Shown here in pieces: positions 7,987-17,833 of a DNA stretch of 64,000 nucleotides. The DNA comes from a virus. Taxonomy: Duplodnaviria; Caudoviricetes. Position 1 is the stretch's first letter, and each line of letters opens with the position of its first letter. A program made the translations under genes and the position numbers. The notes below the pieces were generated by a model. It made no database searches. It saw only the letters and a program-made list of their open reading frames with translations, and was not told the DNA's origin. The stretch is from IMG/VR virus record IMGVR_UViG_3300021426_000070, positions 65,360-129,359 of that record; one strand, written 5' to 3'.

Positions 7987-8426
7987 TTCTCTAACTCAAA
8001 ATTTTGGTTGACTTCACTTACAGAAAAGACACGGTCTGCCACCCCACTTGACTCCACTAACACGCCCCTTGCGTATGTGTCCTTTGACGTACAGACATTG
8101 ACAAAACCTTTAATGCGATAGGAACGCTTCACTTCTTTTTTCGCACATAAGCCGTCAATATAGGACTCCACCGTTTCTATGCACGTCACATGGTCGCCAA
8201 CCTTGAACTTACACTTGTCATTACCGCCGTAAAAACGCATTTTCGACAATGCTGTCGCTATATACTCCTGTGCCCTTATGATGTTCTCGTCATTGCCGCC
8301 TTTAAGGTCTGAGCATGCAAAGAAATTGGCAATGGGCACACCCTCATCAATGTGCCTCATCACCTCATAGATAAACATCTTCAAGTGAGCTACCTCTGTT
8401 ACTATCGTTATATCCTCAATCGTCAT
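7983..8426 (-). CDS. Hypothetical protein with C-terminal SH3-like (FKVGD) segment
   Basis: KFKVGDHV motif. Confidence 0.6.
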   Translation of the reverse strand: MTIEDITIVTEVAHLKMFIYEVMRHIDEGVPIANFFACSDLKGGNDENIIRAQEYIATALSKMRFYGGNDKCKFKVGDHVTCIETVESYIDGLCAKKEVKRSYRIKGFVNVCTSKDTYARGVLVESSGVADRVFSVSEVNQNFELEK

Positions 8427-8644
8427 ACCTCAACAAGCTTTACTAAATCACCAACAGTCTTAACGTTACGGGCATCATCGGGAATATCCATCTTGAAGAC
8501 GGTTTCCAACTCAATGATAATCTCGAGCATATCGAATGAATCCACACCCAAATCATCTTGCAACGTGGTATCATCGTTCAGCTCGTCCGTCTCGACATAC
8601 ATTTTGTCCGCTATGATACTATACACTTGGTCTCTTCTATTCAT
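8423..8644 (-). CDS. acpP: Acyl carrier protein
   Basis: 73 aa, acidic, DDLGVDSFDMLEIIIELETVF..IPDD...TVGD with the conserved Ser. Confidence 0.9.
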   Translation of the reverse strand: MNRRDQVYSIIADKMYVETDELNDDTTLQDDLGVDSFDMLEIIIELETVFKMDIPDDARNVKTVGDLVKLVEV

Positions 8645-8752: not shown

Positions 8753-9253
8753 CTACTTTATACATACGAAATCCTCTACGTCCATATAGTCAATACCAAA
8801 ATTCTCAGCCGCTTTCTTGTCAGAGTTAGAGAAATCGTTCGGCTTGCCGCTAGCATCACCGACCATCAGCATCAGCTCTTTCTTCCTTAATGATGGGAGC
8901 ATAGTGAGCAAAGCCTCTTCGAACATACCCGTGTTGGGTTTACGCCTTGGATTGGATTTATCTGTGTCAGCGCAATAGTACGATGAAACGGCTACATTAC
9001 AATAGACAAAAACAAAGAACTCAACCGCCTTCATCTTTGCCTTGAAATCCTCTTCTGTCTGATACTCGGGAATACCGCCTTGGTTGGAAACGATAACCAC
9101 CCTCTGTAGGTCTTTCAGAGAGCGTATCTTATCTACGACCTCTTTTCTTATTTGGAAATCGGTTACGTCCCTAGGGAACGTATCACCCGACACCGTCTTG
9201 ATGAGCGTGTCATCAAGGTCTATGAATAATACCTTTTTCTTGTTTATATCCAT
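8753..9253 (-). CDS. HAD-IIIA phosphatase (polynucleotide 3'-phosphatase-like)
   Basis: DLDDTLI, SNQGG, RKPNTGM, VGDASG...SDKKAA. Confidence 0.9.
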   Translation of the reverse strand: MDINKKKVLFIDLDDTLIKTVSGDTFPRDVTDFQIRKEVVDKIRSLKDLQRVVIVSNQGGIPEYQTEEDFKAKMKAVEFFVFVYCNVAVSSYYCADTDKSNPRRKPNTGMFEEALLTMLPSLRKKELMLMVGDASGKPNDFSNSDKKAAENFGIDYMDVEDFVCIK

Positions 9254-9890: not shown

Positions 9891-10079
9891 TTACAGATAT
9901 TGAAATTCATAACCACCTTTATAGACCCGTCCGCTCTTTGCACATCGGCATATATGCGATGACGGGATATTCAAGTCTTTCGAGCACTCCTTTATGGAAG
10001 GATATGTTCTTACCACGTAGCCGCCCCTAGTAACCAAGACAGCCTTTCTTCTACTCAGTGTTGCATTTAACGTACTCAT
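9891..10079 (-). CDS. NUMOD1-like DNA-binding mini-protein
   Basis: YPSIKECSKDLNIPSSHICRCAK...GGYEFQY. Confidence 0.65.
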   Translation of the reverse strand: MSTLNATLSRRKAVLVTRGGYVVRTYPSIKECSKDLNIPSSHICRCAKSGRVYKGGYEFQYL

Positions 10080-10762
10080 TCGAATAAGCTTAACTCCTTT
10101 ACCTTACGTCCGTTCTTAGTCTCATATTCACCCTTGCACACCTTATCAAAGCGTGCGCATCCTTTATCAAAGTATTCTTTATCAAGTTCACAACCCACGA
10201 AATCATACCCCATCTTGTAGGCAGCTATACGGCTTGACTGACTGCCCATCATCGGGTCAAAGATAGTATCACCTTCTTGTGCAAAGTTTCTTATCAGCCA
10301 CCCGTAGAGCTCAGTAGGCTTCTGTGTAGGGTGAAACCGCTCTTTGTCTTGAGTATCGGAAATGAAACCCATCTGTCGCAGTCGGAAGATACGGACAACC
10401 TTTGACATGTTAGTCCAAGCCAATTCAGCATCGGCAAAGACACTCTTGTTCTCAGTGCCATCACACTTATCCCATACCAACCAACACTTAGACATCGGCA
10501 GTATGTGTGTGAAATAGTTTCCGCCCCATATGATGACCTTCTCCCCGACACGCAGCAACTCATCAAAGAACGCCTTTTCGGGTATTTGGCTATCCCATTT
10601 GACATCCTCTAACTCGGGTCTGTTATCACACACGCCCCACCCGTTCTTTCCTCTCGCATAGCTCACGCCATACGGAGGGTCGGCAAGAACCAACTGAAAC
10701 GCATTGTCGGGCAACGTCCTCATAAAATCTATACAATCACAATTAAACACTTCACTTCTCAT
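10076..10762 (-). CDS. DNA N6-adenine/N4-cytosine methyltransferase (beta class)
   Basis: DPPY, HPTQKP, DPMMGS. Confidence 0.93.
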   Translation of the reverse strand: MRSEVFNCDCIDFMRTLPDNAFQLVLADPPYGVSYARGKNGWGVCDNRPELEDVKWDSQIPEKAFFDELLRVGEKVIIWGGNYFTHILPMSKCWLVWDKCDGTENKSVFADAELAWTNMSKVVRIFRLRQMGFISDTQDKERFHPTQKPTELYGWLIRNFAQEGDTIFDPMMGSQSSRIAAYKMGYDFVGCELDKEYFDKGCARFDKVCKGEYETKNGRKVKELSLFE

Positions 10763-10763
10763 A

Positions 10764-11480
10764 CTAAAACAATGCTTGAGGGTTTTTCTTTTCTTCTTTT
10801 ATTCTCTTGTTGATAAGGTCGTAATACTCATCATCTATCTCTGCGCCCACGAAATGCCTACCCGAACGGATGCATGCTAGTGCTGTCGTGCCGCTACCCA
10901 TGAAAGGGTCTAAGACAATATCGCCTTTCTGTGAGCTTTCCTCGATAAGTATCTGCATAAGACTGACGGGCTTCTGCGAGTCATGGATATTCTCTCCATT
11001 AGCCTTCTTCGTCTTGACATTAGGAATAGTGATAATATCCCCTCTGCCGCAATCGTTGATGGGCACAGCCTTACCCTTTCGCAAGAAGATAATATACTCA
11101 AAGGCATTCATATAGAACGTGCCCATGATGAGATTTGTTTTGTTCCAAATAAGACATTTGATGAAATGGAAATCGCTCTCATCAATGACCTTTAGGAAAT
11201 GCACGAGGTTGATATGGTTGCACATGATATAACAATGCGAGCCGTCCTTTAGCACCCTATAAAGCTCGGGAAGATAAGTATCTATCTCTATGCCGTTATG
11301 CTCGAACACCTTGCCTTTCTTGTTGATATCCTTCTGCATCATGCCGCCGCTGTTACCCGCACTGCCACGTGCCGTTACAAGATACGGAGGGTCTGACACC
11401 ACCAAGTCAACGCTCTCACTAGGAAGACTCCTCAACAGCTCCATGCAGTCGCCGTGAAAAATGCTGTCTATCTTATCCAT
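10764..11480 (-). CDS. DNA N6-adenine/N4-cytosine methyltransferase (beta class; likely start 11480)
   Basis: DPPY, HDSQKP, DPFMGSGTT. Confidence 0.93.
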   Translation of the reverse strand: MDKIDSIFHGDCMELLRSLPSESVDLVVSDPPYLVTARGSAGNSGGMMQKDINKKGKVFEHNGIEIDTYLPELYRVLKDGSHCYIMCNHINLVHFLKVIDESDFHFIKCLIWNKTNLIMGTFYMNAFEYIIFLRKGKAVPINDCGRGDIITIPNVKTKKANGENIHDSQKPVSLMQILIEESSQKGDIVLDPFMGSGTTALACIRSGRHFVGAEIDDEYYDLINKRIKEEKKNPQALF

Positions 11481-11817
11481 GCCTATTAACCCTTTCATAC
11501 AATTCGTTCACCAATGCCAATGCCACGATGATTTTCTTTCTTATCGGTTGGTTGTTTGTGAGAATACCCGACAACAGATAGATATTACTGATATAGCTTG
11601 CCTTGATACTTCCTCTGTAGCCCTCAGTCATGCTCTTTAGGTTATCCATCTTCGACTTTGCGCACCTCAGCAGCATATCCAACACCTTTTCGATACGCTC
11701 TCTGTCATCACCATCGGAGAACGCTTCTTTCATTACCAACTGAAACATCTGATAGTCCGTAACGGGCTTCATATCCTTTTGCGCCATCATGCGCTTTTCT
11801 AATTGTGCTTTATTCAT
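11473..11817 (-). CDS. Hypothetical protein
   Basis: ORF track; overlaps both MTase neighbours. Confidence 0.65.
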   Translation of the reverse strand: MNKAQLEKRMMAQKDMKPVTDYQMFQLVMKEAFSDGDDRERIEKVLDMLLRCAKSKMDNLKSMTEGYRGSIKASYISNIYLLSGILTNNQPIRKKIIVALALVNELYERVNRHG

Positions 11818-12583
11818 CTAAATCCAAACTTAATTGTTGTTTCTCTTCTGTTATTCTCTTTTCCGCCTTACGGAAATACTCTTCATTCTTCTCAAAGCCT
11901 ACATAATGCCGACCCTCTTTGATAGCCGCTACCGCCGTTGTACCGCTACCGATAGTAGCATCAAGTACCGTATCACCTTTGTTGGTGTAGGTACGTATCA
12001 GATAGCGTATCAAGTCAACGGGCTTCTGTGTGGGATGCCATGTATCTGCAGTATGCTCTTTCGGGAAATGCAAGATACTGATAGGGTAGCCCTCCGTCTT
12101 TGACTCGGTGCTTACAGCCTCGAACTTGCCATAGCACTGATTTGTCATCTTGTTACCGCCCTTACCCCTTGCATGCGTATTACACGCCCTCTTCTGCGGG
12201 TTATAGGTAGGCTGTTTGCGATAGAACACCATGATATCCTCATGTGAGCGTAAAGGCATACGCTTTGCATTAAGAAATCCCGTTGACCGCCCTTTATCCC
12301 AAATCAGATTGTATCGCCAAATCTTAGGCTGCGACATCATCATCTGTGCCGTGAACATACCTTGCCCGAACAAGACGATAGCACCATTCTCTTTCGTCAC
12401 TCGGAGCAGATGCGCCCATAACGGCTTATCGGGTATGACCCTATCCCATGCGACTTGCTGATTGTTCTTGTGCAGCACCTCGTAAGGAAGGTCGCAGATA
12501 ACACAATCAATGCTCCCATCGGGTATGCCCGCCATCAACTCTAGGCAATCGCCGTTGTATATTCTATCAAGCTCTATCACCAT
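11810..12583 (-). CDS. DNA N6-adenine/N4-cytosine methyltransferase (beta class; likely start 12583)
   Basis: DLPY, HPTQKP, DATIGSGTT. Confidence 0.93.
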   Translation of the reverse strand: MVIELDRIYNGDCLELMAGIPDGSIDCVICDLPYEVLHKNNQQVAWDRVIPDKPLWAHLLRVTKENGAIVLFGQGMFTAQMMMSQPKIWRYNLIWDKGRSTGFLNAKRMPLRSHEDIMVFYRKQPTYNPQKRACNTHARGKGGNKMTNQCYGKFEAVSTESKTEGYPISILHFPKEHTADTWHPTQKPVDLIRYLIRTYTNKGDTVLDATIGSGTTAVAAIKEGRHYVGFEKNEEYFRKAEKRITEEKQQLSLDLDE

Positions 12584-12927
12584 AAGCCTTTTTTTCTTTG
12601 TTCCTCTTCCCAAAGGTATTGTCTATCCCAATCCTTGTAAAAAAAGCTGCATTTAAACACCAACCATGCAAAGCCTATACATAATTCGCTATGATTATAG
12701 AAATAGCATATACAAGGCAATACATAGACCTTATCCTTCATCACGTTCACATTATCATGGGCTCTCCACGTGCCGAAACGGACAACGAACCTTACAAGCT
12801 TATCGTTATCCCATTTCTCCCAACATATCTGCCGTTTCAGATGCGGCTTGACATCTTGACCATCCATGATACACGCTATCGTGTATATGATGAACGCCGC
12901 AAATATAGAAATTGTCAAAGTACCCAT
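12577..12927 (-). CDS. Hypothetical membrane-anchored protein
   Basis: N-terminal hydrophobic helix. Confidence 0.55.
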   Translation of the reverse strand: MGTLTISIFAAFIIYTIACIMDGQDVKPHLKRQICWEKWDNDKLVRFVVRFGTWRAHDNVNVMKDKVYVLPCICYFYNHSELCIGFAWLVFKCSFFYKDWDRQYLWEEEQRKKGLW

Positions 12928-13127
12928 CCGCTTGATTTTTTGAAGTCCACACCGCCTTTCCCGTCCGACTTAAACGAACCGAAATGCTTTACCACCACTT
13001 GCTCACCGCTATTGACCAACATCTTTATATGGTCAAAGATAAGGTCATAGGAATAGCGCACATCTTCGGGCTTCAACCCTAGCTCTTTTGCAATATCCTT
13101 GCACATTTTCATCTTGTAGTTTACCAT
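12915..13127 (-). CDS. HU/IHF-like DNA-binding protein with shortened arm
   Basis: IAKELGL...LVNSGEQVVVKHFGSF...VDFKKS. Confidence 0.7.
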   Translation of the reverse strand: MVNYKMKMCKDIAKELGLKPEDVRYSYDLIFDHIKMLVNSGEQVVVKHFGSFKSDGKGGVDFKKSSGWVL

Positions 13128-13139
13128 AACCGAATTTAT

Positions 13140-13964
13140 TTAATCGTCAAACAAAGACAACTGACCATAGTCATCATACTTCTTCACGTTCTTAATCTTC
13201 ACCTCTTTCGTCTCCACGCCATCTTTCAGCAGCTTTATATATCCGCAGCATACGGGACAAGAATACCACTCATCGAACCTAGCATCGTAAACCTTATGAG
13301 TGCCATTACAGCAGTTAGGAACATACATGGCGTCCTTTGTCGGTGCTTTCTGTTCTTTGTATAACACCTTCAGACTCTTATCCAACAGATAGCAATACCT
13401 ATGCTTTCTTGGTCGTTCCACCCATACGCCGTGCCTTTCCTTGGTATAGCCACGGAAATTCTTTATGCCGTCATCGGTGTAAAAGTCGCTCTTCTTATCC
13501 GTAAGCCCATAGTACTTGAAATTACATACTTGGTAGATACTGCCGACATGCCTAGATGCATCGGCTAGCGTTATCACCGCCTTAATGCCATGTTGTTTCA
13601 GCAGCTTCATCGAATTACCCAAAAGGAAAGACGTTGCATTCGTCCCATTAAGACATGGCAGCAGACAAAGCCTAGACAGCTCCAACACATATTGGCAGTC
13701 GTTCTTCAATCCGAACCACCCTTTGAGAGCAACAGTACCTTGCGGGTTGGAGAATGTTGCGACACCAACCAACTCTTCCGTGCCATCAATAGCACGATAA
13801 TACATACCATAGCCATGCACACAGAAAAACTTTGCATTGGCAAGATAGTGGTACTTTCTGACAAACGCATAGCACGTGTTCTTGTCTATCTCACGGATAG
13901 AAAAGATACTCCTTGCGCCCAATCTGCGTGTCTTAAATCCTTCCAAATCAATATCACTAATCAT
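13140..13964 (-). CDS. Mom-like (GNAT-fold) DNA modification protein with C-terminal Cys cluster
   Basis: FVRKYHYL, GVATF, ELSRLC, NATSFLLG, ITLAD...HVGSIYQVCNF.Y.G resemble the phage Mu Mom family. Confidence 0.8.
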   Translation of the reverse strand: MISDIDLEGFKTRRLGARSIFSIREIDKNTCYAFVRKYHYLANAKFFCVHGYGMYYRAIDGTEELVGVATFSNPQGTVALKGWFGLKNDCQYVLELSRLCLLPCLNGTNATSFLLGNSMKLLKQHGIKAVITLADASRHVGSIYQVCNFKYYGLTDKKSDFYTDDGIKNFRGYTKERHGVWVERPRKHRYCYLLDKSLKVLYKEQKAPTKDAMYVPNCCNGTHKVYDARFDEWYSCPVCCGYIKLLKDGVETKEVKIKNVKKYDDYGQLSLFDD

Positions 13965-13979
13965 CTTTCAGAACTTTTT

Positions 13980-14786
13980 TTATAATTCATTTCTTTCTGA
14001 TTTCTCAACCACCTCTTCTGGTGTAAGCCCATTTTTCTCAATGAACATCTTGCGCATATCCAACAGCGACTTCACGGAAACATTGTATCTGTTCTCTATA
14101 AGGGCTTTTGCGCCGTCCACAAGCGTTTCTAACGGCTTGGGCTTATAACTTACAACCCTTTGGTCTTCTGACCGCTCTACGACAAAGGAAATAGGCTCTC
14201 CTTTCGCTTCTTTCTCTTTCCGCCACTCTTCATACGACAAGGTAGGCTTTTTCTTCTGCTCTTCTATCGCCTTCTTAGCCTTGAACTCTTCATAGTCCGC
14301 ATACACATCTGACCGATACACAAGGAACTCTCGGAACGCCCTTGTAATAACCATAGGGTCAACAGTACCATAGAACTGCCCATACTGACCTAGCTTGAAC
14401 TTCTTGCAGAACACCATGAACTCTTTCACCTTTATCCATGGGTATGATGTGGCTATCAACAGAGCCGTTTCGCTTATCTGTGATTCCGTGAACTTATCCT
14501 TAGCACCGCAGAACTCCGAAAGGTTGAACAACTGAGGAACAAGAAACATCGCCGCCGTATTCTTACCATAAGTGGCATTAAGCTCTGTCAGTGTCGGTGA
14601 ATCGCTTAGTATAGCCATTGTCTCATCTTGACACAACTCATACTGCCTATCGGGTACAAAGAACATTAGAAAGTGGTTTCTATCACCAAATGTTTTAATA
14701 ATCTCGTTCTTCTTCTGCAGCAAGGTTGGCGATAACTCTTGCCGCCCCCTCTTGCCTTCGCAGTAAATCATTAGCTCGTTGCTCAT
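13980..14786 (-). CDS. Replication-associated protein, possible helicase loader
   Basis: Follows the initiator; EFMVFCKKFKLGQYGQFYGTVDP pattern. Confidence 0.6.
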   Translation of the reverse strand: MSNELMIYCEGKRGRQELSPTLLQKKNEIIKTFGDRNHFLMFFVPDRQYELCQDETMAILSDSPTLTELNATYGKNTAAMFLVPQLFNLSEFCGAKDKFTESQISETALLIATSYPWIKVKEFMVFCKKFKLGQYGQFYGTVDPMVITRAFREFLVYRSDVYADYEEFKAKKAIEEQKKKPTLSYEEWRKEKEAKGEPISFVVERSEDQRVVSYKPKPLETLVDGAKALIENRYNVSVKSLLDMRKMFIEKNGLTPEEVVEKSERNEL

Positions 14787-15564
14787 CCCTAGACAAATTA
14801 TTGTTGTTAAACGTTGTTGTTCTGTTATCGTAATTACCTTCTAATACCTTGGGGAAATTATTAGGCTTGAATAGCCAATCAAAATCGGCAGTCCACCCTC
14901 TGTTATTCTTTCCATTCAGAAAATCCGATGCCGCAGCTTTACGGATAACCTCTTCTACCGATTGATAGCCATACTCACGCAATCTTGCTCTCATGCTCTG
15001 CTTACGTTTATCCGTAAGCCTTGATATGGGCTTGATAGCCTTGTTACTCATAACAGCATTATAGAGAGAAACGATATTATCCAACTCTGACTCCTTTTTG
15101 TTCGAAAGTGTACTTTCGACTTCAATAGATACGTTAGTATCTTGTTTTCTCTCTGTTATATATATATCTTGTTTCTCTATATTATCTCTTTTATTTAGTG
15201 TGGGGTTTTCTCCGTGTCGGGAAAAGTCCGTGTCGGTATTTTCCGTGCACGGTTTTTTCCGTGTCGGTATTTCTTTGTTTGCCTTCAGTGTATATACAAC
15301 CGACCCAAACTGCCCCTTCTCATTAGTACCCTGCTGACCTTTGGTTATCCACCCACTCAAAGCAAGCTCATTAAGGTACTTTCTAAGTGTCTCCACACTA
15401 TACCCCAACTCATTTGCCATCGGCTCAAGCAAGAAATCCCAACCTTCGGGCTTACAAGCCATATAGACATACACAAACCTAGCTCTGTCTGATAGTGTCT
15501 TATCAAAGACAAGGCTTCTAGGAACACTTTCGTAATTCTTTAATTCGCTTTTAAAATTACCCAT
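14695..15564 (-). CDS. Phage replication initiator (N-terminal wHTH, conserved C-terminal domain)
   Basis: LSDRARFVYVYM, WTADFDWLFKPNNFPKVLEGNY; internal iterons. Confidence 0.85.
   Translation of the reverse strand: MGNFKSELKNYESVPRSLVFDKTLSDRARFVYVYMACKPEGWDFLLEPMANELGYSVETLRKYLNELALSGWITKGQQGTNEKGQFGSVVYTLKANKEIPTRKKPCTENTDTDFSRHGENPTLNKRDNIEKQDIYITERKQDTNVSIEVESTLSNKKESELDNIVSLYNAVMSNKAIKPISRLTDKRKQSMRARLREYGYQSVEEVIRKAAASDFLNGKNNRGWTADFDWLFKPNNFPKVLEGNYDNRTTTFNNNNLSRDEQRANDLLRRQEGAARVIANLAAEEERDY
15211..15267. repeat. Iterons, putative replication origin
   Basis: TCCGTGTCGG at 15211, 15227, 15258 and variant TCCGTGCACGG at 15242 (15-16 nt period), next to an AT-rich tract. Confidence 0.75.
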
Positions 15565-15575
15565 ATCATTAATTG

Positions 15576-17693
15576 TTAATCGTTTTGCAACCTTGCTTTC
15601 AACATAGTATTTCTTTTGAGCACCACCATGTTCTTGATGGCACGTCCCAACGCCCTAGAGTCACCTACGATGATACACAACTTCTTAGCTCGTGTAACAG
15701 CCGTATAGACGAGATTACGCTGCAGCATGATATAATGGCTCATAAGCAACGGAACGACCACCACGGGGTATTCTGAGCCTTGTGACTTATGGATAGTGGT
15801 CGCATACGCCAATGTAAGCTCGCTCAAGTCCTCACTCTCATAGACAACAGCTTGGTCGTTGAAATTCACCCTCAGCATACGCTCTTCGGTGTCTATGAAG
15901 TCGATAGTGCCAACGTCACCATTGAACACGTTCTTATCATAGTCATTCTTAATCTGCATGACTTTATCACCGCTACGGAACTTGTACTGCCCGACTTGGA
16001 TATACTCACCCTCGGGGTTCACCGCCTCTTGCAGAGCATTGTTCAGACTGACAGTACCCGCCTGCCCGTTCTTCATCGGCACTAGGACTTGCATATCATC
16101 AATAGTGTAGTTATATGCGTTAGGTATTCGGTTCTTGATAAGGTCAACGATACTATTAGCTGCCAACTGAGCATCCTCTTGCTTGATAAAGAAGAAATCC
16201 GTATCTTTGCCGTTTGACACATCGGGATATTCGCCCTTGTTAATCAAGTGGGCATTGGTCACGATACGGCTTGTAAGAGCTTGTCGGAAGATACGTGTGA
16301 GCCTTACCACGGGCACGACACCCGAATCAATGACATCCCTCAGCACGTTACCCGCACCGACACTCGGTAATTGGTCTATATCACCTACGAGTATCAGCCC
16401 CATCTTCTCGGGAATAGCCTTCATCAGCGAATGCATCAGCATGACATCTATCATCGAACTCTCGTCAACGATAAGCACATCACCATTCAATGGGTCATTC
16501 TCATTCTTCGTGAAACCTTTGTCGGGCATATATCCTAGCAGTCTATGGATAGTCTTTGCATCCTTACCCGTTGCCTCGCTCATACGCTTTGCGGCACGAC
16601 CCGTTGGAGCAGCACAGAGGATAACCTTGTCTTGCATCTCGAGGGCAGTAATGATACCTTGAACGGTTGTTGTCTTACCAGTGCCCGGAAGTCCCGTAAG
16701 CACCATCACCTTTGAGCGCATGGCTTGACGGATAGCATCGGCTTGTATATCGTCATAGTCCATCTGCGTTTTCTCGGAGACAGCCTTAATATCCACCTCT
16801 TTGTTCGACACACTACCCGACTTCAACAGCAGCTTCATCTTCTCTGCAATCCTCAGTTCGGAATAGTAGTACATCGGAAGGAAATACTTTTCATCTTCTT
16901 CTATAACCTCGAAAGCGAACGTCAGCAGCCCTAGACCCTCTTCAATAGCCGCCTCATCAGAGCCTAACAACTCTTTGGCAGTAGCCATAAGCTGAGACCT
17001 TTCGGCATAGCAGTGCCCGTCATTGGATAGCTGCGACAGCGTATATAGAATACCCGCCTTACACCTACGGACATCATTGAGCCCATAGCCAAAGGAACGG
17101 GCTATTTGGTCAGCCATCTTAAAGCCGATACCCGTCACATCATCAGCAAGCACATAAGGGTTTTCTTTAACCGTCTCAATACTCTTATCGCCGTATTGTC
17201 TGTAAATCTTTACCGCATATGCGGGGCTTATATCATGCCCTTGTAGGAAAAGCATAATCTCACGAACCTCTTTGTTCTTACCCCACGAGTCCTTAATCCT
17301 CTTAACCTTATCCTTGCCTAAGCCCTTGACCTTAAACAGCTCATCGGGATTATTATCCAAGATATTCAGCGTGTCCTTGCCGAAATGCTTGACAATAAGC
17401 TTTGCCGTCTTCTTGCCTATGCCCTTGATACAACCGCTAGCAAGATAACTCTCGATACCTTTCTCTGTAGCGGGCAGCTCTTCATACCATTTCTGTACGG
17501 CTAGCTGCCTACCATACTTTGTAGTCTGCCACTCACCTTCACAAACAAGCGTAGCACCGACAGAAACGCCTTGAAACGTACCCGTTATCGTATGATAGAC
17601 GAAACCACCATCGACAGACACTTGAAAAACTGAATAGCCGTTTTCTTCATTTCGAAAAACAACCCGTTCGATTACACATTTTAATTTATCCAT
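15576..17693 (-). CDS. recD2: RecD2-like SF1B helicase (likely start 17693)
   Basis: HhH motifs, GLPGTGKTT, APTGRAA, DESSM, GDIDQLPSV, TIHKSQGSE, YTAVTRA. Confidence 0.95.
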   Translation of the reverse strand: MDKLKCVIERVVFRNEENGYSVFQVSVDGGFVYHTITGTFQGVSVGATLVCEGEWQTTKYGRQLAVQKWYEELPATEKGIESYLASGCIKGIGKKTAKLIVKHFGKDTLNILDNNPDELFKVKGLGKDKVKRIKDSWGKNKEVREIMLFLQGHDISPAYAVKIYRQYGDKSIETVKENPYVLADDVTGIGFKMADQIARSFGYGLNDVRRCKAGILYTLSQLSNDGHCYAERSQLMATAKELLGSDEAAIEEGLGLLTFAFEVIEEDEKYFLPMYYYSELRIAEKMKLLLKSGSVSNKEVDIKAVSEKTQMDYDDIQADAIRQAMRSKVMVLTGLPGTGKTTTVQGIITALEMQDKVILCAAPTGRAAKRMSEATGKDAKTIHRLLGYMPDKGFTKNENDPLNGDVLIVDESSMIDVMLMHSLMKAIPEKMGLILVGDIDQLPSVGAGNVLRDVIDSGVVPVVRLTRIFRQALTSRIVTNAHLINKGEYPDVSNGKDTDFFFIKQEDAQLAANSIVDLIKNRIPNAYNYTIDDMQVLVPMKNGQAGTVSLNNALQEAVNPEGEYIQVGQYKFRSGDKVMQIKNDYDKNVFNGDVGTIDFIDTEERMLRVNFNDQAVVYESEDLSELTLAYATTIHKSQGSEYPVVVVPLLMSHYIMLQRNLVYTAVTRAKKLCIIVGDSRALGRAIKNMVVLKRNTMLKARLQND

Positions 17694-17699
17694 GACTAG

Positions 17700-17833
17700 A
17701 AACACCAAGAGAAGGATAAATACTCAACGCTTCTACTCGTCTTTCTTCACCCCTCTCTTTTTCGGTGTGTATTTTATTGTTCTGCGCCTAGTGTAGAAGT
17801 CAACGCTAAACCTTTATTCTGAGTGCAAAGGTA
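17700..17833 (-). promoter_or_regulatory. Promoter (17826-17833) and structured 5' leader of the replication operon
   Basis: TACCTTTG; overlapping inverted repeats CTTCTAC/GTAGAAG and ACACC..AGAG/CTCT..GGTGT. Confidence 0.6.

Follow-up and report, generated by a model that had tools for sequence, protein, structure and literature searches.

Short C-terminal tails resembling the binding motif of bacterial sliding clamps are found on the DNA-modifying enzymes of a tailed phage (Duplodnaviria; Caudoviricetes), represented by IMG/VR virus record IMGVR_UViG_3300021426_000070, which comprises 129,359 bp and is rated 100% complete by CheckV. The stretch considered here, referred to as the window, is the second half of this record (64,000 nt, positions 65,360 to 129,359). 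It encodes four such enzymes close together: three are, judged by their family matches, PF01555 DNA methyltransferases with predicted methylation activity (MT1, MT2 and MT3), and the fourth is a member of the Mom family with putative adenine carbamoylmethylation activity. The presence of the tails is confirmed. As a phenomenon, clamp docking by these enzymes is probably real and new for phage biology; mechanistically, it would represent a variant of known clamp clients. In the interpretation favoured here, which we regard as likely given strong sequence evidence from several independent lines, the tails serve as sliding-clamp-binding motifs that dock the enzymes on the host clamp DnaN, so that DNA modification would closely follow replication.

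Fit of the tails to the clamp-binding motif

A 2024 review recognizes two kinds of natural β-clamp-binding motif, the pentamer Q-aliphatic-x-[L/M]-[F/L] and the hexamer Q-aliphatic-x-[L/M]-x-[F/L], of which QLxLF and QLxLxF are the strongest variants. The requirements are strict at positions 4 and 5/6, position 2 tolerates other residues and any residue is accepted at position 3; Gln-1 is important without being indispensable, and its replacement by Glu causes a strong loss of affinity in a consensus clamp peptide (PMC11139829). Three tails of the phage conform to this published rule, namely QLSLF of the Mom-like enzyme, QLSLDL of MT3 and QLTLGF of a fifth methylase encoded outside the window. 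A preliminary description of the window, made from the DNA letters, had quoted the C-termini KELSLFE (MT1), NPQALF (MT2), QQLSLDLDE (MT3) and GQLSLFDD (Mom-like), all of which are present exactly in the respective open reading frames (ORFs), with three belonging to PF01555 and one to PF25680. Its view that only the Mom-like motif is perfect was too narrow, as QLSLDL of MT3 is likewise a canonical hexamer under the rule of PMC11139829, while its reading of the tails as sliding-clamp-type motifs is supported in part by the conservation pattern, the unstructured tails in protein models, and the comparisons between elements and between replisomes given below. The Pfam matches of all four window enzymes stop short of the tails. 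A shared DNA repeat was considered as origin of the tails and ruled out, because the four window tails are encoded by different codons.

The frequency of such tails was determined in a scan of 224 non-overlapping ORFs from the whole 129-kb genome, in which the canonical motif was defined as QLxLF or QLxLx[LF] within the last 10 residues and a relaxed pattern was scored in addition. Three of seven DNA-modification enzymes carry the canonical motif versus none of the 217 other ORFs (Fisher p = 1.9e-5), and the relaxed motif is present in five of seven versus two of 217 (p = 1e-7). Genome-wide, the only canonical carriers are the Mom-like enzyme, MT3 and an ORF at genome positions 16684-17430, i.e. 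the fifth methylase. Both relaxed matches outside the modification enzymes are plus-strand ORFs, which are probably not genes because nearly all genes of the phage lie on the minus strand. Hence, the occurrence of the tail on modification enzymes is far above chance. The earlier statement that all four modifying enzymes are tailed stands for the window, while the set of enzymes was incomplete, since three further methylases are encoded outside of it, one with the canonical tail QLTLGF, one with the doubtful tail QTKTLFDL and a Dam-type enzyme with none.

Conservation in homologues and structure models

Among homologues ending in F, the four enzyme families carry Q at position -5 in 72/89, 44/49, 30/44 and 19/24 sequences and L at position -2 in 83/89, 46/49, 33/44 and 19/24, respectively, with varying residues at position -3 and L, P or T at position -4. 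Judged from these alignments, the pattern of the last five residues is that of the β-clamp motif. Within the same proteins, the canonical motif is more than 300-fold enriched in the terminal 10 residues relative to internal sequence windows, and key tail positions are kept among orthologues with variable preceding linkers, which is the behaviour of a short linear motif.

The individual families differ in how far the tail extends among relatives. For MT1, 27,512 relatives were obtained at E ≤ 0.001 in a 50%-identity cluster library, many of which end in Qxx[LM]F; a relaxed motif is found in the last ten residues of 59 among the best 150 matches, which are representatives of 50%-identity clusters and much less redundant. 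Examples of MT1-related methylase ends are ..KVKELSLFD (P0252), ..VKQLSIFDV (P0258) and ..RYRQLSLFE (P0433). The nearest relatives of MT2 end in NPPSLF, QLTLF, QLSLF, QLRLF, QPKLF, QTELF or RQGDLF, and more distant ones are devoid of a tail; overall, 49 of 120 MT2 homologues end in F, with Q at -5 in 44 and L at -2 in 46 of these. In case of MT3, the consensus of 121 relatives (approximately 60-68% identity) ends in ExxQLTLF, with QLTLDL(F) and QLTLDFDP as variants, and by this alignment its own QLSLDLDE belongs among the hexamer variants.

The Mom-like enzyme contains a Cys-rich zinc-ribbon-like segment at its C-terminal side, followed in the alignment by an extension of approximately 25 residues. 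Of its closest relatives (63-98% identity), 26 of 33 keep QL[S/E/T/N]LF at most three residues from the end behind a variable linker, and more distant relatives either end right after the Cys-rich segment or bear other extensions. Two such other endings were noted: one group of Mom homologues of approximately 330 amino acids (aa) shares the conserved end ..EDNY[FI]EDFxKEFY.. (P0047, P0048, P0054, P0056, P0061, P0065, P0089, P0090 and P0105), and another of approximately 300 aa ends in ..DYPxE(K/N)xxYxYxV.. (P0034, P0038, P0068, P0082 and P0114). These alternative C-terminal extensions may be further docking modules. Among cultured phages, no close homologue of the Mom-like enzyme was found, only seven distant matches with less than 34% identity.

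AlphaFold2 models are consistent with accessible tails. The model of the Mom-like enzyme displays a mean predicted local distance difference test (pLDDT) score of 87.8, with residues 264-274 below 50, and in the MT3 model the last helix extends to residue 259, with a mean pLDDT of 56 for residues 261-267. Due to this low pLDDT beyond the folded part, the tails of both proteins are predicted to be free ends outside the fold.

Copies on phages and conjugative transposons

A comparison of mobile elements was made with MT3 relatives from one genome per prokaryotic species, giving 80 loci, nearly all of them from Bacteroidales. Loci with TraM, TraN (DUF4138) or the coupling protein, as found in the transfer operons of conjugative transposons, were assigned to the transposon class. 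A clamp-type tail is present on none of the MT3 orthologues from 60 tra-operon loci versus 13 of 19 loci without tra genes (Fisher p = 1e-10). The tra-operon orthologues instead end in polar low-complexity sequence, three further non-tra loci carry near-variant tails (QYKLEL, QLTFDF), and one tailed MT3-type locus adjoins phage virion PHROGs. As a separate observation, the tail-less orthologue is located between TraM and TraN (DUF4138) in transfer operons of many Bacteroidales genera (L073-L138, e.g. L112:6001-6786), often with a PF05869 Dam-type gene approximately 1.2 kb upstream.

Of six homologues from cultured phages that were checked, two carry a tail, namely methylase BAR92371.1 of Pseudomonas phage PS-1 (..QFDLFEEVAHG) and a yhdJ-like methylase of Acinetobacter phage MD-2021a (..QPDLFGEAV). 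In the isolate Prevotella sp. P2-180, a methylase at a phage-type locus (L063) ends in ..NPTLF. Because many cultured-phage homologues lack it, the tail seems to be common but optional and not required for activity.

Tail type and replisome in related phages

Relatives of the Mom-like enzyme are encoded on 57 viral contigs, and within a single phage one tail type is common to all modification enzymes. In record G043 (178,667 bp, 96% complete), nine of nine PF01555 and Mom enzymes carry an LF/IF-type tail (QLSLF four times, QPTLF twice, and QPTLDLF, EQSLF and LQTIF once each, i.e. eight [ST]-L-F and one QTIF). The only other sizeable ORF of G043 with a canonical tail is a γ-class PF02384 methylase of 298 aa ending in ..YTQLSLF (L276:10635-11531, plus strand). 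By family assignment, the tail is thus on all ten modification enzymes of this phage, which represent three unrelated families (PF01555, Mom and PF02384). Searches of G043 for PolA, PolB, Pol III alpha, β clamp and gp45 clamp found none.

A different tail accompanies a different replisome in fragment G045, which encodes a T4-like PolB ending in SSLDSLFV, a gp45-type clamp (PF09116, 49.6-51.4 bits) and a T4 RNase H homologue, together with an ORF that is presumably RecA/UvsX-like. Scanning its 59 ORFs for PolB-type ends gave four matches: PolB itself, a PF01555 methylase (QTLEGVFENE), the Mom enzyme (NTLEEAFE) and a 422-aa protein (STLESFF), which is a probable methylase given its weak match (E = 2.4e-6) to a PHROG methyltransferase family. 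All four ends read [ST]L[DE]xxF with a hydrophobic residue immediately before F, so that the tails of this gp45-encoding phage are hydrophobic and acidic like the end of its own polymerase. The tail therefore appears to follow the replisome, as the enzymes of the gp45-encoding phage bear a gp45-type peptide and those of clamp-less phages the bacterial type. In two other relatives, G044 and G046, a phage-encoded β clamp gene is located immediately upstream of the Mom and methylase genes. G044 also encodes a 267-aa protein (L283:4314-5117, plus strand) which ends in ..DDDQTTLFDDE and has only a weak sub-threshold SWIM zinc-finger match; with the phage's own β clamp present, it is possibly another clamp client.

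A third tail type occurs on jumbo-myovirus fragments (L023-L031, L181-L224, e.g. L028:119-4748), where five to six methylases and Mom enzymes encoded side by side share the end [IL]x[DKT]WF, followed by one or two residues (e.g. TLKEWFD, IGDWFE, LGDWFG, MEKWFN and INTWFE). In 2,330 ORFs from 80 related contigs, WF-type ends are confined to proteins of this modification island, which lies among tail-sheath genes and adjoins a 1131-aa tail sheath gene. The WF tail resembles PCNA-interacting protein (PIP) box or gp45-type peptides. The replisome of these phages was not found on the available contigs, which are 4-18 kb fragments, two of them estimated by CheckV at 3% of a genome each, and no replisome genes are near methylases P0414 and P0377, which carry other WF-like tails, on their contigs. 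A distant 209-kb relative encodes a PolB ending in ..FQTLFEF and no PF01555 methylase.

Replication genes and the proposed docking on the host clamp

Six-frame family searches of the whole record, which are independent of start codons, found no β clamp (PF00712), gp45-type clamp (PF09116), PolA, PolB or Pol III alpha; the absence of a phage DNA polymerase noted earlier for the window hence extends to the entire genome. The host probably belongs to the order Bacteroidales, because the nearest relatives of MT3 among prokaryotic genomes are found in Prevotella and other Bacteroidales. The DnaN of Prevotella (L140:736-1857, minus strand) is a clear β clamp, with a best PDB match of 249 bits, and an alignment of 30 Bacteroidales DnaN sequences was assembled around it. 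Y-family polymerases of five Bacteroidales genomes have mostly uninformative C-termini, with a single motif-like end. This end, ..VQLRIDFDFEDDNKL, belongs to a DinB-type host polymerase (L263:874-1959, minus strand, genome G019) and is of hexamer type like the QLTLDFDP and QLSLDLDE tails of the methylases.

On this basis, the following course of events may be proposed. The phage would supply its own initiator or helicase loader and a helicase, and no polymerase or clamp; from this gene content, its DNA is presumably copied by host Pol III with host DnaN. Clamps on newly made phage DNA would present two hydrophobic clefts each. Both the methyltransferases and the Mom-type enzyme could dock there by their flexible tails, and would thereby be concentrated on fresh duplex DNA and slide along it. 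The DNA would thus be modified soon after synthesis, ahead of host restriction cutting at unmodified sites, and the difference between strong tails (QLSLF, QLSLDL, QLTLGF) and weak tails (ELSLF, NPQALF) may set the order of access.

Gene cluster and further features

The coordinates of the tailed enzymes, their tails and neighbouring genes are compiled in Table 1. Genes around the tail cluster are on the minus strand throughout in the ORF listing. MT1, MT2 and MT3 exceed the PF01555 gathering cut-off of 26.7 bits and contain DPPY or DLPY motifs in their translations, and the Mom-like enzyme likewise exceeds the Pfam cut-off of 27.1 bits for PF25680.

Table 1 Features of the modification gene cluster and of the second methylase row (window positions unless marked as genome positions)
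Feature	Position	Strand	Evidence and remarks
MT1, PF01555 (β-class N6/N4) DNA methyltransferase, 228 aa	10076..10762	-	ORF; Pfam 60 bits
MT1 tail ELSLF, end ..GRKVKELSLFE	10082..10096	-	one residue before C-terminus; off-consensus pentapeptide, E replacing Q
MT2, PF01555 DNA methyltransferase, 244 aa as longest ORF	10764..11498	-	ORF; Pfam 128.8 bits
MT2 tail NPQALF, end ..KKNPQALF	10767..10784	-	L-F at extreme C-terminus; weakest among the four tails
MT3, PF01555 DNA methyltransferase, 267 aa from TTG	11810..12613	-	ORF; Pfam 116.5 bits
MT3 tail QLSLDL, end ..EKQQLSLDLDE	11819..11836	-	two residues before C-terminus; canonical hexameric clamp-binding motif
HU-like DNA-binding protein within cluster	12915..13127	-	Pfam PF00216, 28.8 bits
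Mom-family enzyme, 274 aa	13140..13964	-	ORF; PF25680, 86.5 bits, residues 21-203
Mom-like tail QLSLF, end ..YGQLSLFDD	13149..13163	-	two residues before C-terminus; perfect pentameric clamp-binding motif
Replication initiator / DnaD-like helicase loader	14695..15564	-	PHROG 19658, 10469, 345; E down to 8e-33
RecD2-type helicase	15576..17708	-	Pfam AAA_19, AAA_30, HHH_RecD2, SH3_13, UvrD_C_2
Fifth PF01555 methylase, end QAQLTLGF	genome 16684-17430		PF01555, 108 bits; canonical hexamer QLTLGF; picked out by motif scan
Sixth PF01555 methylase, neighbour of fifth, end EQTKTLFDL	genome 16684-18728 region		QTKTLFDL a doubtful tail
PF05869 Dam-type enzyme, adjoining fifth and sixth methylases	genome 16684-18728 region		without tail

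The longest-ORF starts of MT2 and MT3 are probably too far upstream, because their homologues begin further downstream. A 98%-identical database entry of MT2 is six residues shorter, so that translation of MT2 may begin at the ATG located six codons after the longest-ORF start. For MT3, homologues begin 10-11 codons past its TTG with the consensus MxELDxIYN (P0121, for instance, comprises 256 aa), and its true start is probably located at that position.

The second row of three methylases (G000:C1:16684-18728; L001:2685-4729) lies approximately 47-49 kb upstream of the window start. Directly downstream of it, a protein with alpha-CTD, sigma-r4 and helix-turn-helix (HTH) features and a DUF932 protein are encoded. 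Within the window, a PNK3P-type polynucleotide 3'-phosphatase (8753-9253, minus strand; PF08645, 90.6 bits) adjoins a 73-aa ORF (8423-8644, minus strand), which we take to be acyl-carrier-protein-like from its LGVDSFD motif. In a Megablast search, the cluster had no match among 50,697 phage records.

Alternative explanations

Several points weigh against docking on the host clamp. Of the four tails in the window, two deviate from the consensus, namely ELSLF of MT1 with Glu at position 1 and NPQALF of MT2, which fits neither pentamer nor hexamer; as close homologues mostly carry Q-x-x-L-F, both look like weakened variants. The phage's own Dam-type PF05869 methylase has no tail and that of the sixth methylase is only doubtful. 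Moreover, homologues from Bacillus, Salmonella, Lactococcus and Geobacillus phages are without tail. The homologue sets consist of related sequences, so that their counts overstate independence, and the transposon and phage copies of MT3 also form two clades, so that the contrast between them may reflect a single evolutionary event. Finally, an absence of clamp and polymerase genes that is based on Pfam could miss a very divergent phage clamp or polymerase.

The same tails might instead dock on another shared partner, either a phage scaffold joining the modification enzymes, for which the HU-like protein and the small proteins of the cluster are candidates, or a hub protein of the host other than the clamp. 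The finding of one tail type per phage could be explained by any common partner, two small ORFs with no family assigned (11473-11817 and 12577-12927) and the HU-like gene do lie within the cluster, and the [IL]x[DKT]WF tail of jumbo phages may have a partner other than a clamp. Yet the tail sequence is the published β-clamp motif at each position, thousands of tailed methylases from very different phages are unlikely to share one scaffold, and the tail form of G045 also occurs on its replicative polymerase, whose T4 counterpart binds the clamp through this peptide, which leaves this explanation unlikely. Alternatively, the clamp could be the partner, with takeover as the main purpose and targeting of modification being secondary: six or so abundant proteins would saturate the clefts and displace mismatch repair, translesion polymerases and initiation control. 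Such an effect has a precedent in overproduced MuC, which carries a clamp motif, is toxic via the clamp and interferes with the control of initiation (preprint 10.1101/2025.01.04.631326), as well as in phage clamp inhibitors such as Twort Gp168 (PMC8565349), and the many tailed proteins of this phage would suit it too. We nevertheless consider it quite improbable, as a pure inhibitor would need no catalytic body, the phage's own replication depends on functional host clamps, and tails are kept in phages with their own clamp. Furthermore, the sizeable ORFs that bear canonical tails in the scanned phage genomes encode modifying enzymes or the replicative polymerase, and the few other matches are short or unassigned ORFs.

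That the tails are unrelated to docking altogether, being C-terminal degradation or stability tags or by-products of a shared gene-end ancestry, seems highly improbable. Hydrophobic C-termini are generally known to be able to serve as protease tags, and PF01555 paralogues could share one inherited ancestral end. Against this stand the differing codons without any DNA repeat, the presence of tails on the unrelated folds PF01555, PF02384 and Mom, the coincidence of the conserved positions with the clamp motif, the change of tail type with replisome type, and the tail-less transposon-borne orthologues in the same hosts.

Relation to known clamp clients

Docking of the modification enzymes on the host clamp would resemble that of established bacterial β-clamp clients such as Pol II, Pol IV, the C-terminus of Pol III alpha, UmuC, Hda and MutS/MutL, which also carry QLxLF or QLxLx[LF] at an unstructured terminus with Q1, L4 and F5 being conserved (PMC11139829). 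It differs in that the motif is borne by phage-encoded DNA methyltransferases and by a hypermodification enzyme of Mom type, for which clamp binding is predicted. The eukaryotic counterpart is DNMT1, a methyltransferase that is brought to newly replicated DNA through a PIP-box contact with PCNA (PMC9690074), and the proposed phage system would work likewise. In contrast to DNMT1-PCNA, the phage case involves a β dimer, another motif and unrelated enzymes, of which several are tagged at once, including one for a non-methyl modification; its presumed purpose is escape from restriction and not epigenetic inheritance.

Phage proteins other than polymerases are also known to ride the clamp by means of a polymerase-type peptide. 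In T4, gp55 and gp33 carry C-terminal clamp peptides like that of the polymerase gp43 (PMC2988020), and MuC of phage Mu, a transcription factor, uses the host β clamp via such a motif (10.1101/2025.01.04.631326; PMC12867686). Unlike these transcription factors, the tagged proteins described here are DNA-modifying enzymes. Phage Mu also provides the reference for the window's hypermodification enzyme, which matches the Mom family (PF25680; PMC7261163, PMC13219725). Mu Mom acts post-replicatively on double-stranded DNA (PMC13219725), which fits a clamp-tethered enzyme. The window protein differs from Mu Mom by the added Cys-rich segment and the QLSLF tail, which occur together only in its closest clade, and the 2026 Mom paper mentions neither a clamp nor a C-terminal tail (PMC13219725).

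Full-text searches revealed no paper in which Mom or any DNA methyltransferase from bacteria or phages binds a sliding clamp; these searches covered few subscription journals, so that an older report is possible. The words methyltransferase, methylase and methylation are absent from the 2024 β-clamp review (PMC11139829), and the sole methylase-clamp case in a 2022 review is DNMT1-PCNA (PMC9690074).

Implications for phage DNA modification

Beyond this single phage, the comparison of tails points to a more general rule, which is not described in the literature searched and which we hold to be reasonably likely: modification enzymes of phages, from at least three unrelated families (PF01555, PF02384 and Mom), would have repeatedly gained C-terminal docking peptides matching the clamp that replicates the respective phage. 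Phages without a replisome would use the β-clamp motif and T4-like phages a gp45-type peptide, while the WF tail would represent either a further clamp code or docking on another partner. Such docking would couple modification to replication in the service of counter-restriction, and would in viruses and bacteria correspond to DNMT1-PCNA. The tail motif of a phage may then report which clamp replicates it, and the tail could further be used as a simple sequence marker to tell phage-type from conjugative-transposon-type orphan methylases.

If true, docking on the clamp would explain how phages with multiple methylases keep modification in step with very fast replication, such that daughter genomes would never be open to restriction. 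The bacterial sliding-clamp network, for which recent reviews name no DNA-modifying enzyme among the clients, would gain a large new group of them, apparently numbering thousands of methylases. Clamp docking also predicts that inhibitors of the clamp cleft would sensitise such phages to restriction.

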